A program made the translations under genes and the position numbers. A stretch of DNA of 64,000 nt from Candidatus Uhrbacteria bacterium (lineage in GTDB: Bacteria; Patescibacteriota; Patescibacteriia; JACQRZ01), in the NCBI GenBank assembly GCA_016186045.1, contig JACPMJ010000005.1, positions 7,143 through 71,142 on the forward strand. Reading direction: 5' to 3'. Of this stretch, positions 4,095 to 58,029 are shown one piece after another (positions within the stretch are counted from its first letter, which is position 1; every line of letters begins with the position of its first letter). The notes beneath the pieces are model-generated. The model saw nothing but the letters and a program-made list of their open reading frames with translations, was not told the origin of the DNA and ran no database searches.

Positions 4095-4103
4095 AGTGAC
4101 ATG

Positions 4104-4269
4104 AGCCAGGAGAGTCTTTATGTTTATGACGTTTCAATTCAAAGAAATACTGCGCGTCTCACAACGCAAAAATCAAAACTCGCTTCGCTCAAACAGTTGA
4201 TTTTTGCTGTTTACCGCGTGTATTTCTTGTTGAATTTTCACTAATGTAAACATAAAGACTCTCCCGGCT
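4104..4269. mobile_element. MITE-like element copy 1 (about 166 bp, about 24-bp terminal inverted repeats AGCCAGGAGAGTCTTTATGTTTAT / TAAACATAAAGACTCTCCCGGCT)
   Basis: TIRs read directly; internal sequence about 85% identical to reverse complement of 49497-49666. Confidence 0.7.
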
Positions 4270-4280
4270 CTTAATAATTT

Positions 4281-19755: not shown

Positions 19756-19826
19756 GCTACCTCGCGCGCTGGCGGGTAGCTTGAGTGTCATTTCGATCCG
19801 CCAGCTGGCGGAGAGAAATTCCGACG
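19756..19826. repeat. palindromic repeat family member (hairpin GCTACCTCGCGCGCTGGCGGGTAGC plus GTCATTTCGATCCGCCAGCTGGCGGAGAGAAATTCCGAC)
   Basis: Core CCGCCAGCTGGCGG at 19798-19811. Confidence 0.7.
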
Positions 19827-21728: not shown

Positions 21729-21845
21729 AGGGAATAGAGGGTGTCATCCTGAGTGATAACGAAGGATCCCGTTGGTATCATGTTTTTAACATCGGGATTC
21801 CTCTCCGCCAGCTGGCGGATCGGAATGACATACATAGTATTCCCT
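21729..21845. repeat. A-type palindromic element copy 1 (GTCATCCTGAGTGA...GGGATTCCTCTCCGCCAGCTGGCGGATCGGAATGACATACATAGTATTCCC)
   Basis: Right 49 bp identical (1 mismatch) to 38451-38499; core CCGCCAGCTGGCGG 21805-21818. Confidence 0.8.
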
Positions 21846-23359: not shown

Positions 23360-23490
23360 GTCATTGCGAGGGATCCGCCTCCGTCTCCGCCAATTGGCGG
23401 ATGGCGGAGGTGGAAACCGTGGCAATCCCAATTAGAGATCCCTCGTCCCTCGGGGGTACTCGGGATGACATTACTTCGCTCGGGATGACA
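23360..23490. repeat. A-type-related palindromic element in reverse orientation (GTCATTGCGAGGGATCC...CCGCCAATTGGCGG...CTCGGGATGACATTACTTCGCTCGGGATGAC)
   Basis: Core CCGCCAATTGGCGG 23387-23400; reverse complement of 3' end equals GTCATCCCGAGCGAAG start of A-type element. Confidence 0.7.
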
Positions 23491-38404: not shown

Positions 38405-38499
38405 GTCATCCTGAGTGAAGCGAAGGATCCCGTTCGTGATAAAGAGCTGGGATTCCTCTCCGCCAGCTGGCGGATCGGAATGACATACATAGTATACCC
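38405..38499. repeat. A-type palindromic element copy 2
   Basis: GTCATCCTGAGTGAAGCGAAGGATCC...CCGCCAGCTGGCGGATCGGAATGACATACATAGTATACCC; marks the gap-proximal edge of the GC-rich island. Confidence 0.8.
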
Positions 38500-38586
38500 T
38501 ATTTTTATAATCTTCACAAAATAAAAAAAGACTTATTGCATTTTGCGATAGGTCTTTGAAATTTTTTTTGCGGAATTACGGGGATG

Positions 38587-38651
38587 ATCCCTACCTTACC
38601 ATGCCTTGCCCCGCCGGACCAAACCATACCATACCGGACCTCACCGCACCT
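38587..38651. repeat. C-type array: strict 5-nt periodic (NNNCC)x12 tract beginning CCCTACCTTACCATGCCTTGCC
   Basis: CC dinucleotide every 5 nt read directly. Confidence 0.75.
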
Positions 38652-39381: not shown

Positions 39382-39423
39382 CTCTCGTACCTCCTTACCT
39401 TAAATTGAGAGAGTTTTCGAATG

Positions 39424-39512
39424 GGCCCTACCTTACCGTGCCTTACCACGCCTTACCACGCCTAACCTCGCCACGCCCAGCCAGACCGCAACCCCACCAG
39501 ACCAAACCCTAT
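39424..39512. repeat. C-type array: (NNNCC)x13 decaying to NNNAC, begins GCCCTACCTTACCGTGCCTTACC
   Basis: Same orientation and 5' sequence as 38587 copy. Confidence 0.75.
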
Positions 39513-39667: not shown

Positions 39668-41908
39668 TTAGGAGAGACTGAATACGAGATTATCCAGACT
39701 TCCAAGTAGGAACGGAGTATCACTCAGTGCGCACGCGGCGATTTTTTCGCACGTGAGTGAGGTGAGTGATGCCGTGTATCTTTCTTTGGACGGTACGGGA
39801 CTTTCCTTCAACTCCTGCTGTGCCTCCTCGCACAATGGAAGGTGAATGGCGAGATGCTCGCCGCCAAAGGAGATACCGAAGGCGCTGGCGTCAGAAGGAT
39901 TCAGCCGAATCGCTTCACCCCAATCTTCCCTCCGGGAGAGATGCATACGCATGGGAACGTATATGTCGGAATACGTCGCAAGGACCATGTGGTGATCCAT
40001 GTATGCCGACATCATCTCGAGGATATACGGTTCGAGTACTCCGCCTTCGAGCAAAACACCCGCCTCCTTTACGGTCATTGCTCGGCCGTCGGCGACAATC
40101 GTACTCATGATGATCGGTTTGAGAAGTTCAGTCGCGATAGTGGTCGGGATTCCCAGCATCTTTTTTTGAAGAGAGGGATCCGGCACACACACCGCGGTTG
40201 CGGAATAGTCTACCCGCCGCTCATAGAAGTCTCTCGCGGCATTATCGATCTCCATATCGATACTCTGAAGAAGACGGCCAAATGAACCCTGGAGTGTGGT
40301 ATTGCGCATCAGCGTTTCTACCGCCTCCTGTACCATTTGGCACTCGTTTCTGATGATGATCTCTGGGGCACCCATCTCCATCAGACGACTGACACGATTA
40401 TTCCTACCGATAATGCGTCGATACAGATCGTTGAGATCTGATGTTGCGAAAGTTTTTGCATCGTATCGGACCATCGGTCGGAGGTTGGTGGGCAGAACCG
40501 GGAGATTGCGTATAAGGAAGCGTGAGATATCAACCCCTCGCTCCATGCACACGCTCTCGAGTGCCGCCACTCCCCAGTCGCTTGGTTCGGCATCGTCATC
40601 ATCATCCACTATGGATCGTTTGTAATCGATGACAGCGAGAATGCCCTCGATATCTCCGATGCCGACTTGTGCAATAGTTTGTGCACATTGCAGCTTGAGC
40701 CATGGATGGACAACCGGAATCGCAAGTTTGATATGACCAAACCTGCTATTCGGTGCCAAGTGTGTATCAACTTGGACGCCGCACTTCATGCACGTGATAC
40801 CCTTATGCCTGATGCCCTCGAGTCTGCCACAACTGCACTTCAGATCTCGGCCGTTTCCGAAGATCGCCTCGCAGAAGAGACCTTCGTGTTCTGGCTTCAA
40901 TGTTTTGTAGCTGATGGTCTCTGGACGTTTTACCTCGCCGTGTGACTGCTTGACGATCTGCGCATCGGTTATGCGCATGATATGTAGAGCACCATCTTCA
41001 ACTTTCGTTGAGAAACCGCACCCAACCATCAATGTTGCAAGTCGATGTGCGGAGTGAGTCGGTGGTGTTTCCAATGCGGGGACGGGATTTCGGAGAAGCA
41101 ATGCTTCATATGCTGTTGCTCGCGCGCGTATGCCGCTTGATTTGACCATAGCCATTTCCACAGCGTTCTGTACGTATCCGAGGTGCGCAAACTTTTGGAT
41201 GTTGACCTTTTGTCCTGGATTTGGATGTTCCGATAGGGGCTGTTGAGTGACTAGGCTATACCGTCCAGTCGAACGTCCAGCCAACTTGTCTTCCATGCGC
41301 CGCGTTATTTTCGTGAGTTTCACGGCACGAAATGCAGGACCATCCGAATCCGGAACTGGAAGTCCCTTGAGGATATCAGCGTCTGGATGGACGAGAATAT
41401 CCGTACCAAAGGAAAAGCATCCCTTGGCGCTGAACCCTGCTACGACCAAGGTATGGCCGTGGTTATCATTAAGGACATCGCCGACAGCCAGCTTGCGCTG
41501 GATGAGGAGGTCGATGGTTACGACCTTACCCTTGTTGAAATCCTTGATCTCTACGTTTGTGACCAACGCCTCATCCCGCTGTTTTGCGATCGCGACGATG
41601 GGTTGTGTCTGGGCAAGCGTTGCGGCGAGTACCGAGCGCTGTGCGACTTTCGTACCGACCATCACTACGCCATTCTTATCCAGATTCGCACCCGGAAAGT
41701 ACCCCTCGAAGTCTGCGGGTTTTGCGCTTTTTGCCGGCGCATCGATAGAGAATGGTGACTGGCGCTCCAGAAGCGCGGTGTCAAACCGCCCCTGATCGCG
41801 CACCTCCTCTGATACGATGCAGGCGTTGCCGGTCAGCTGCGGATATGTCCGCAGAAGGTTTTTTCCGGCTATTCGGAGTCTGAGTCTTGATTTCCCATCC
41901 AGGATCAT
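39668..41908 (-). CDS. RNA polymerase clamp-module homolog: RpoB C-terminal-like region fused to RpoC N-terminal-like region, catalytic residues not conserved
   Basis: RSTGRYSLVTQQPL (beta), EVKRPETISYKTLKPEHEGLFCEAIFG, zinc finger CSCG...CMKCG, FATSDLNDLYRRIIGRNNR clamp helices, RVDYSATAV; NADFDGDQM replaced by AYMDHHM. Confidence 0.6.
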   Translation of the reverse strand: MILDGKSRLRLRIAGKNLLRTYPQLTGNACIVSEEVRDQGRFDTALLERQSPFSIDAPAKSAKPADFEGYFPGANLDKNGVVMVGTKVAQRSVLAATLAQTQPIVAIAKQRDEALVTNVEIKDFNKGKVVTIDLLIQRKLAVGDVLNDNHGHTLVVAGFSAKGCFSFGTDILVHPDADILKGLPVPDSDGPAFRAVKLTKITRRMEDKLAGRSTGRYSLVTQQPLSEHPNPGQKVNIQKFAHLGYVQNAVEMAMVKSSGIRARATAYEALLLRNPVPALETPPTHSAHRLATLMVGCGFSTKVEDGALHIMRITDAQIVKQSHGEVKRPETISYKTLKPEHEGLFCEAIFGNGRDLKCSCGRLEGIRHKGITCMKCGVQVDTHLAPNSRFGHIKLAIPVVHPWLKLQCAQTIAQVGIGDIEGILAVIDYKRSIVDDDDDAEPSDWGVAALESVCMERGVDISRFLIRNLPVLPTNLRPMVRYDAKTFATSDLNDLYRRIIGRNNRVSRLMEMGAPEIIIRNECQMVQEAVETLMRNTTLQGSFGRLLQSIDMEIDNAARDFYERRVDYSATAVCVPDPSLQKKMLGIPTTIATELLKPIIMSTIVADGRAMTVKEAGVLLEGGVLEPYILEMMSAYMDHHMVLATYSDIYVPMRMHLSRREDWGEAIRLNPSDASAFGISFGGEHLAIHLPLCEEAQQELKESPVPSKERYTASLTSLTCEKIAACALSDTPFLLGSLDNLVFSLS

Positions 41909-42023
41909 CGGATTCCTCCTTGCATCCCGTCTTCCGACAGGTAAAGCCCGGTTTTCCCGAGCGTGTCAAAGAACCGATAGTAATGTACATGCATGAATTA
42001 TATATTGTCAAGGAGCTGTACTG

Positions 42024-42150
42024 AGGCCGTTGCAAAACTCAGCTAAGCATGTCATTCCCGCGAAGGCGGGAATCCAGTTCTTTTAATTTAAGAAGAATTC
42101 TGGATCCCCGATCAGGTCGGGGATGACAATCGGAGGGTTTTGCAACGGTC
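42024..42150. mobile_element. MITE-like insertion with about 15-bp TIRs (AGGCCGTTGCAAAACTC / GAGGGTTTTGCAACGGTC) carrying a GTCATTCCCGCGAAGGCGGGAATC...GGGGATGACAA palindromic element; flanked by 18-bp direct repeats TGTCAAGGAGCTGTAC(TG/AG) at 42006-42023 and 42158-42175
   Basis: TIRs and direct repeats read directly. Confidence 0.7.
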
Positions 42151-42195
42151 TCTGTACTGTCAAGGAGCTGTACAGCGCGAGTACATAGGTAACAC

Positions 42196-42672
42196 TTACT
42201 TGTCGCCAAAGCGCTTTTTATATCGCGCAGTAATCTCATCCACGAGATACTTTAAGAAAGTATCTTCTCTTACCGTTTTTAGTACCGGCTCCTCGAGAAT
42301 ATCGAGCAGAAATACTCCTGAGGCGACGAGTGTGAAGCAGATGCCGCATTCATCCGCATGCATGTCTCTCGGCTTTCCTGTACTTACGGCGATCGCCGTC
42401 CGAAGAATTTGTACGTCGCTGAAATGCGGATTTTCTCCGACCGATCGGATTCCGATCGAACGAAGAATCATGATCATCATCTCCTCACCCATCTGATTTT
42501 TCTTCACATTTCCTCCTTCGAGAATTCTTTTTAATCCCATCCATGTGCGCACACAGATATATGGATTAGCCAAAAATCCTCTCTTCAGGAAATCTACTAT
42601 ACATAGTAGTGATTTCCTGGAGAGAAGGCGCGAAGGTTTCTCTATGTCCTTCGCGCAAATATTCCTGAGCAC
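42196..42672 (-). CDS. hypothetical small protein (158 aa; 5' end overlaps hairpin repeats, true start may be internal)
   Basis: ORF only. Confidence 0.3.
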   Translation of the reverse strand: MLRNICAKDIEKPSRLLSRKSLLCIVDFLKRGFLANPYICVRTWMGLKRILEGGNVKKNQMGEEMMIMILRSIGIRSVGENPHFSDVQILRTAIAVSTGKPRDMHADECGICFTLVASGVFLLDILEEPVLKTVREDTFLKYLVDEITARYKKRFGDK

Positions 42673-49496: not shown

Positions 49497-49666
49497 GGAA
49501 GTGGGAGATTTTTTATGTTTATATTAGCGGAGATTCAATGAGAAATAGGCGTGGTGAGTAGTAAAAATCAATTGTTTGAGCGAAGCGAGTTTTGATTTTT
49601 ACGTTATAAGACGCGCAATATTTCTTTGAATCGGAGCGTCATAAACATAAAAAATCTCCCACTTCC
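49497..49666. mobile_element. MITE-like element copy 2 (170 bp, perfect 26-bp TIRs GGAAGTGGGAGATTTTTTATGTTTAT) between tsf and rpsB, opposite orientation to copy at 4104-4269
   Basis: Perfect inverted repeats 49497-49522 / 49641-49666. Confidence 0.75.
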
Positions 49667-57774: not shown

Positions 57775-57867
57775 GGTGTGGTGTGACGTAGTCGTGCAAG
57801 ACGGGGTGGGGTTGGGTCTGGCTAGGTATGGTTTGGCTAGGCGAGGCGAGGCACGGTAAGGTAGGGC
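57775..57867. repeat. C-type array in inverse orientation ((GGNNN)n ending ...GGCACGGTAAGGTAGGGC)
   Basis: Reverse complement begins GCCCTACCTTACCGTGCC like the 39424 copy. Confidence 0.75.
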
Positions 57868-57956
57868 TTATTCAAAGGAATGAGCTCTTTTTAATTTGAC
57901 GAAAAATAGGTGTTTGATAAGGTAAAAGCGGTGAAAAACAGAATCGTCTAAGAACT

Positions 57957-58029
57957 GTCATCCTCGGGCTTGACCCGAGGATCCAGAGTTCATAGATCCC
58001 GGATCAGCGGAGGCGGATTGGGATGACAA
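57957..58029. repeat. palindromic family member (GTCATCCTCGGGCTTGACCCGAGGATCC...GCGGAGGCGGATTGGGATGAC)
   Basis: Termini GTCATCC / GGATGAC, internal hairpin CCTCGGGCTTGACCCGAGG. Confidence 0.7.

Follow-up and report, generated by a model that had tools for sequence, protein, structure and literature searches.

A MITE of an IS5/IS1182-like family in the promoter region of an RpoB/RpoC-like gene of Candidatus Uhrbacteria, most likely inserted into a 16-bp tandem repeat

Genomic context of the locus

The element described here lies in a 287-bp gap of the window (the whole 64-kb stretch of Candidatus Uhrbacteria DNA that was analysed), between the start of a gene of 746 aa and the stop codon of an ORF of 114 aa on the same strand (Table 1). 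The product of the 746-aa ORF resembles a fusion of RNA polymerase subunits, with the domain Rpb2_6 (RpoB C-terminal) together with Rpb1_1 and part of Rpb1_2 (RpoC N-terminal). A single identical record, named Candidatus Uhrbacteria, and no close homologue were found for this protein, its next matches being ordinary beta-prime subunits (E ~1e-77) and a few proteins with the same fusion (P0002, P0003, and P0010). The ORF sits in a stretch (38-44 kb) with a G+C content of 0.50-0.52, which is higher than elsewhere (about 0.44). In addition, arrays of 10-bp CCTTACCNCG-type repeats occupy three intergenic places of the window (38584-38650, 39416-39487, and 57805-57876), two of them flanking an ORF of 221 aa that adjoins the RpoB/RpoC-like gene.

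Only one sigma-70-like promoter was predicted in the gap, TTGACA-18-TACATT, on the minus strand at 42011..41982. Its -35 hexamer falls within the left unit of a 16-bp direct repeat, 12 bp downstream of the end of the element, and the second TTGACA-bearing unit would have been pushed 136 bp away. The insertion may thus alter the promoter or the expression of the RpoB/RpoC-like gene, and read-through from the upstream ORF would give a hairpin RNA of about 130 nt. Both flanks are present, with identical sequence, in three Logan assemblies from the same series of samples, and all three break inside the element. Contig L001 stops at 42052, exactly 30 nt (k-1) into the element if 42023 is taken as its first base, as expected if other copies of the element exist in the metagenome, for which it is weak evidence; the other breaks (42119, 42125, and 38487) fit less neatly.

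Table 1. Features of the locus in window coordinates.
Feature	Coordinates	Strand	Remarks
RpoB/RpoC-like gene (downstream gene)	39668..41908	-	746 aa, RpoB C-terminal/RpoC N-terminal fusion-like; Pfam Rpb2_6, Rpb1_1, Rpb1_2; promoter region hit by the insertion
16-bp repeat unit 1, TGTCAAGGAGCTGTAC	42006..42021	.	Exact; host sequence outside the MITE; minus strand holds TTGACA
Target-site duplication, left copy TGTACT	42017..42022	.	Adjoins left terminus; longest repeat touching both termini
MITE proper	42023..42152	.	130 bp, non-coding, single long hairpin fold; limits from the family 16-nt termini and the duplication positions (78 listed copies)
Left terminal inverted repeat, GAGGCCGTTGCAAAAC	42023..42038	+	15/16 against the right arm and against the family consensus GAGACCGTTGCAAAAC
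Hairpin 1 of the core doublet, GTCATTCCCGCGAAGGCGGGAATCC	42051..42075	+	8-bp perfect stem
Hairpin 2 of the core doublet, GGATCCCCGATCAGGTCGGGGATGAC (reverse complement GTCATCCCCGACCTGATCGGGGATCC)	42102..42127	-	8-bp perfect stem; inverted with respect to hairpin 1
Right terminal inverted repeat, reverse complement GAGACCGTTGCAAAAC	42137..42152	-	Same sequence as the ends of the autonomous IS copies L069, L074, L173, L181
Target-site duplication, right copy TGTACT	42153..42158	.	Adjoins right terminus
16-bp repeat unit 2, TGTCAAGGAGCTGTAC	42158..42173	.	Exact; most likely displaced 136 bp by the insertion

Limits, termini and folding of the element

The 130 bp at 42023-42152 constitute a true MITE, and its family is IS5/IS1182-like. 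Its termini are 16 nt long and match each other in 15 positions. An earlier note on this DNA, made from the sequence alone, had already described a MITE-like insertion with TIRs of about 15 bp; we found that these ends define a real mobile family that includes autonomous IS with identical termini. The inverted-repeat arms appear to be longer (42018-42038 and 42137-42157, 21 nt, 90% complementary), being made up of the 16-nt terminal repeat plus GTAC from the target duplication. Since this GTAC is self-complementary, the inverted repeat seems to be 21 nt long, but GTAC must be placed outside the terminus because the sequences of the family vary beyond GAGAC.

No coding capacity was found in the MITE, each frame having stops or lacking a start inside it. 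The palindromic interior reported in the same note consists of two inverted hairpins and the fold goes far beyond that of shuffled sequences: the free energy of the 181-nt region was -43.4 kcal/mol as DNA (z = -7.9) and -67.5 kcal/mol as RNA (z = -7.0), and in neither case was any of 200 shuffles as stable. A search of Rfam, with the whole window at gathering thresholds and with the locus at E up to 10, gave no meaningful match, and only sub-threshold microRNA and sRNA models aligned. Regarding the suggestion that the element belongs to a repeat family of the window, it holds for the hairpins of GTCAT type, which recur there, but not for the termini and the flanking repeat, which are single-copy; no second copy of the MITE termini was detected in the 64 kb. 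This is ordinary selfish DNA, non-autonomous and non-coding, of a kind that is already well known.

Apart from this element, a second family of MITE-like palindromes is apparent in the window, at 4103-4270 and 49497-49666. Its two members, of about 165 bp, are 84% identical and inverted in orientation, and each has ends of 24-26 nt whose complementarity is perfect or almost perfect (e.g., GGAAGTGGGAGATTTTTTATGTTTAT...ATAAACATAAAAAATCTCCCACTTCC).

A family of termini present in many phyla

Contigs from one genome per species, the source genome not being among the representatives, were scanned with the pattern CGTTGCAAAAC-N83-113-GTTTTGCAACG. This yielded 30 sites, when about 1 would be expected according to our own estimate. 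They were located in two other Uhrbacteria MAGs (L025 and L050), in another Patescibacteria MAG (L035), in a Gemmataceae MAG with 7 sites, and in Crocinitomicaceae, Omnitrophota, Clostridia, Chlamydiae, Chloroflexi, and others. In most copies the repeat continues outward for five bases, xAGxC, to give the consensus GAGACCGTTGCAAAAC, and the flanks beyond it are unrelated. At four sites (L026, L043, L044, and L047) the outer bases are absent, and these may be unrelated palindromes. A scan of metagenome contigs with the 18-mer GAGACCGTTGCAAAACYC gave at least 120 loci. Both scans together provided at least 78 non-identical pairs of MITE size (70-290 bp), palindromic and distributed among many phyla.

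The boundary of the element can be deduced from these copies. With the limit placed at 16 nt, i.e., at the outer G of GAGAC, exact direct repeats of 4 bp or longer adjoin both ends in 40 of the 78 listed copies (4 bp in 11 copies, 5 bp in 23, and 6 bp in 6). Moving the limit inward or outward by 2 nt or more leaves no more than 2 listed copies with a repeat of 5 bp or longer. The duplicated pentamers are AT-rich and roughly AANTT. Two subfamilies differ in this respect: in copies of the GAGAC type, to which the window copy belongs, 5-bp duplications at AANTT-like targets are the most frequent, whereas those of the CAGCC type (Gemmataceae and Myxococcales) have 4-bp duplications, such as CTAG, TTAG, CTAA, and GTAG. 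All seven copies of the Gemmataceae MAG (L027, L033, L034, L038, L039, L041, and L051) have CAGCC termini. This Gemmataceae subfamily has a G/C-rich palindromic interior, CCCCTCCCCC...GGGGGAGGGG, and its duplications, NTAG or CTAA, resemble the classic target choice of IS5.

The closest relative among the matches listed is a copy of 129 bp in one of the other Uhrbacteria MAGs (L025:7074-7202), in reverse orientation and with 77% identity over its full length. The comparison by blastn of every fetched locus with the window revealed none from the same or a closely related genome, and a 24-mer specific to the subfamily had 0 matches in the JGI metagenomes. Among viral contigs, GAGRCCGTTGCAAAAC gave 18 single matches in unrelated contexts, which were attributed to chance. 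In the searchable literature on the termini, the hairpin, the translated peptides, and MITEs of CPR bacteria, no description of the family was found, the strings of the termini leading only to primers, and that on IS1182, IS1634, and MITEs contributed only general tables of duplication length.

The six-frame translation of 41990-42260, which contains the hairpin core, includes the peptides VIPAKAGIQ, SFPRRRESS, WIPAFAGMT, LDSRLRGND, and GSPIRSGMT. Similar strings are presumably present in many "hypothetical proteins" of environmental genomes; if so, such proteins would be spurious ORFs over elements like the MITE of the window. A search with the translated element for spurious ORFs lying on other copies returned no candidate with the exact element.

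The autonomous insertion sequence and its transposase

Two loci, L069 (1264 bp) and L074 (1266 bp), carry identical paired termini enclosing an ORF of 358 aa. Together with L173 and L181-L185 they form a set of IS of 1.26-1.36 kb that have the 16-nt termini of the family and encode a DDE transposase of 356-363 aa. The 358-aa ORF contains the Pfam domains DUF772 (E = 1.6e-20) and DDE_Tnp_1 (E = 5.1e-20). With respect to NCBIfam models, the best score was that of IS1182, with 167-174 bits against a curated cut-off of 270 and covering only parts of the 488-position profile, while IS5_4 reached 133-136 bits, below its curated cut-off of 140. Searched by tblastn against plasmids, the transposase matched only features annotated as IS5 family transposase, at 28-30% identity. 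About 150 homologues were found at E <= 1e-30, which JGI names "IS5 family transposase"; most of their contigs measure about 1.3 kb, which is what a repeat present in several copies should give.

Target duplications of the IS were observed on longer contigs (TCTCA in L181-L185 and TTGAAT in L173). Most of the IS-length copies on short contigs have no visible duplication, which, on our assumption, is probably due to chimeric assembly across a multi-copy repeat. An identical transposase of 356 aa (P0160) is encoded by an IS of 1,294 bp that appears in at least four flank contexts (L173-L180, from Hainich groundwater assemblies and Logan runs), which points to present or recent activity of a multi-copy IS of the family in groundwater communities. 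A more distant IS, at L188:103-1420, has 49% transposase identity, the terminus GAGCCCGTTGAAAAAC, and an 8-bp direct repeat, TTTATGCG; therefore, the length of the duplication varies when more distant members of the family are included.

In several MITEs, L167 and L061 among them, the initial 25 nt (GAGACCGTTGCAAAACTCAATTTTC) agree with those at the left end of the IS in L069, so that the MITE ends derive from the end of the IS. No cognate transposase was found by tblastn in the 64-kb window (best E = 0.65). Nor was there any autonomous IS among the 30 loci of the genome scan, in which the only candidate, L048, encodes LepA, LeuC, and LeuD.

The interior hairpin doublet

A GTCAT...ATGAC core is present in 22 of the 78 listed members of the family, from several phyla, and these copies are all organized alike, with a terminus and a short AT-rich spacer, then (T)GTCAT, the hairpins and ATGAC(A), and lastly another spacer and the other terminus. 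Since the relative in L025 is 77% identical including both hairpins, the doublet was in the element before its arrival at this locus.

Hairpins or inverted doublets of the form GTCAT...GGAT(T)CC are also found elsewhere in the window, at 21743-21829, 38405-38484, 57957-58027, and 23360-23490, and single hairpins of GTCAT type near 19787, 25565, and 60141. Many of those in the window centre on TCCGCCAGCTGGCGGA, and outside the MITE their flanks are unlike the MITE termini. The copies at 21743 and 38405 have in common a right part of 53 nt with 98% identity. Near-identical hairpins were observed as well in the unrelated metagenome loci L055, L102, and L157.

Two other histories of this interior have been considered. 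According to the first, which we regard as doubtful, the GTCAT...GGATCC hairpins are a separate REP-like module, present across phyla, that has been captured repeatedly by ends of IS5 type, possibly through fold-back at a hairpin of one IS end plus adjacent DNA. The second proposes nested elements, in which an older palindromic MITE or hairpin stood here and a REP/REPIN-like GTCAT doublet was then inserted centrally at this very locus. It would account for the quite different flanks of the first three doublets listed above, for the near-identical hairpins outside MITEs at unrelated metagenome loci, for interiors that are entirely different in family members of other taxa, and for the Logan breaks at 42052 and 42119/42125, which coincide with the edges of the doublet. 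However, the layout recurs in those 22 members from several phyla, the identity with the L025 relative extends end to end, both hairpins included, and within the element the doublet has no visible duplication at its sides, so that a nested insertion is quite improbable.

The flanking direct repeats and the target site

The earlier note had also reported direct repeats of 18 bp at the flanks. Such repeats do exist: TGTCAAGGAGCTGTAC is exact in both places, beyond chance, about 3e-5 occurrences of an exact 16-mer being expected in the window by our own estimate, and it lengthens to 19 nt with one mismatch when the repeats are started at 42003 and 42155. No further copies of TGTCAAGGAGCTGTAC were found in the 64-kb window allowing up to 3 mismatches. 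Their reading as the likeness of a target-site duplication did not hold, given that the left 16-mer stops 1 nt short of the terminus and the right one begins 5 nt beyond it. The sequence comes close instead to the alternative mentioned in the same note, a tandem duplication unrelated to the inverted repeats. In fact, if the element is removed together with one TGTACT (42023-42158), the remaining sequence reads ATATAT-TGTCAAGGAGCTGTAC-TGTCAAGGAGCTGTAC-AGCGCG, an exact tandem of two units of 16 bp.

The repeat touching both family-defined termini has a maximum of 6 bp, or 8 bp with both boundaries moved 1 nt inward. TGTACT is the only repeat in the window that adjoins both ends of the element, and it is the target-site duplication of this MITE. 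Because the reconstructed empty site is exactly (TGTCAAGGAGCTGTAC)x2, the simplest history is that the MITE inserted into a pre-existing tandem. The direct repeats of 16-18 bp would then most likely be a 16-bp tandem split by the MITE, not the scar of its insertion, and by parsimony alone the tandem would be older than the insertion. Arrays of this class are not exotic in the window since about 11 two-copy tandems with a period of 9-21 are present in it, representing about 0.5% of its length. It must be noted against the split tandem that an insertion precisely where the two units of a perfect tandem meet, such tandems being rare, presupposes a coincidence with odds on the order of one percent.

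The explanation of the earlier note, in which the direct repeats of 16-18 bp are a true duplication generated by an unusually long staggered cut, has to be weighed against this. An exact repeat of 16 nt far exceeds what chance would give, the duplication length does vary when distant relatives are counted (4, 5, or 6 bp, and 8 bp in one case), and the related IS1182 and IS1634 families are reported to have variable, sometimes long duplications. Nevertheless, the 16-mers are asymmetric, with one extra nucleotide (T) at the left junction and five (TGTAC) at the right, and a repeat that touches both termini is limited to the 6 or 8 bp given above. Moreover, the sequence outside GAGAC varies among members, so that GTAC cannot be counted as terminal, and none of the other 77 listed copies has flanking repeats longer than 11 nt, which is also the most that a cross-paired control reaches; long flanking repeats are therefore not a trait of the family. 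A long duplication is accordingly a very improbable explanation of these repeats. Neither a close relative of the locus nor an empty site was found in the collections searched, and the empty site was not recovered because the locus has no close relatives and the 24-mer of the subfamily is absent from the JGI metagenomes.

Proposed mechanism of insertion

Taken as a whole, the preferred reading is that the termini of the window MITE are served by an IS5/IS1182-like transposase and that the element, making a short duplication, landed inside a pre-existing 16-bp tandem. We give it a probability of about 80%. In this mechanism, the 16-nt termini, GAGRCCGTTGCAAAAC, would be bound and cut by an IS5/IS1182-like DDE transposase of about 358 aa (DUF772 plus DDE_Tnp_1), which, on the basis of the family, would be supplied in trans by an IS of 1.26-1.36 kb with the same termini. 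The transposase would move the MITE and insert it via a short staggered cut, whose repair would duplicate 4-6 bp of the target, mostly 5 and usually AT-rich and AANTT-like (TGTACT in the window copy). The target would have been the junction of the two units of (TGTCAAGGAGCTGTAC)x2, in the promoter region of the 746-aa gene, and insertion at that junction would create the semblance of flanking direct repeats of 16-18 bp.

Recent mobility of the window MITE is plausible, because the duplication is perfect and the termini match in 15 of 16 positions. At present the element would be immobile unless the genome encodes the transposase elsewhere. That the palindrome is not mobile DNA but a regulatory structure of the host (terminator, operator or structured RNA) serving the flanking genes is extremely improbable, for although the fold has a very high stability, is placed after the stop of one gene and ahead of the promoter of the following one, both genes being on one strand, and has in hairpin 1 followed by CCAGTTCTTT a terminator-like score on the plus strand, this match is on the strand opposite both genes, no Rfam model reached its gathering score, and the same termini appear with varying short duplications at unrelated loci in many phyla and on transposase-encoding IS.

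Comparison with known systems

The IS5 family (E. coli IS5, ISPssy, and the MITEs derived from IS5) shares several traits with the elements described here. The partner IS has 1.26-1.36 kb, a single ORF with DUF772 and DDE_Tnp_1, and termini of 16 nt beginning with GAG, and its CAGCC-type relatives duplicate 4 bp (CTAG, TTAG, CTAA), the classic IS5 target being YTAR with a duplication of 4 bp. In contrast, the partner transposase is just 28-30% identical to the IS5 transposases of plasmids, its IS5_4 score is under the cut-off, and the GAGAC-type subfamily of the window copy mostly duplicates 5 bp, not 4. As for the IS1182 family, it gives the top NCBIfam score, over the N-terminal DUF772 region and DDE_Tnp_1_6, but this score is far under the 270-bit cut-off and the partner transposase is about 130 aa shorter than the profile.

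The REP/REPIN sequences are doublets of palindromes mobilized by RAYT tyrosine transposases. The interior of the MITE is like them in its two short GC-rich inverted hairpins forming a longer hairpin, and the GTCAT...GGATCC hairpins recur in intergenic places of the window. However, the doublet of the window is bracketed by termini of a DDE transposon and a target duplication, and REPINs are not known to have either. No RAYT was identified, and the only candidate seen, a Y1_Tnp gene beside the IS copy in L176, was discarded, as its 36 bits fall short of the cut-off (80) and no GTCAT hairpins surround it.

Finally, in Neisseria the Correia elements (NEMIS), with a size of about 100-150 bp, are also MITEs; they form a long hairpin and duplicate the target TA, and no autonomous partner is known for them. 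By analogy, the window MITE may be compared with them in size, long hairpin, intergenic location, and frequent proximity to promoters, but their termini are unrelated to those of the window MITE and no sequence similarity was seen.

Implications

In attention to the above, the supposed 18-bp target duplication becomes an ordinary MITE insertion with a duplication of 5-6 bp, and the single apparent oddity of the locus dissolves. Should the hairpins indeed be captured modules, the MITEs ending in GAGACCGTTGCAAAAC would be composite vehicles moving hairpins between distant lineages, including genome-reduced CPR bacteria, and the near-invariant 16-nt terminus shared by Patescibacteria, Planctomycetota, and Clostridia would reflect frequent transfer between phyla, not ancestry. 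With regard to the family itself, the MITEs and IS ending in this consensus abound in many phyla of environmental bacteria, also in CPR genomes, which are thought to be poor in mobile DNA. They account for spurious peptide strings such as WIPAFAGMT and SFPRRRESS, translated from their hairpin cores, and for many short assembly breaks.
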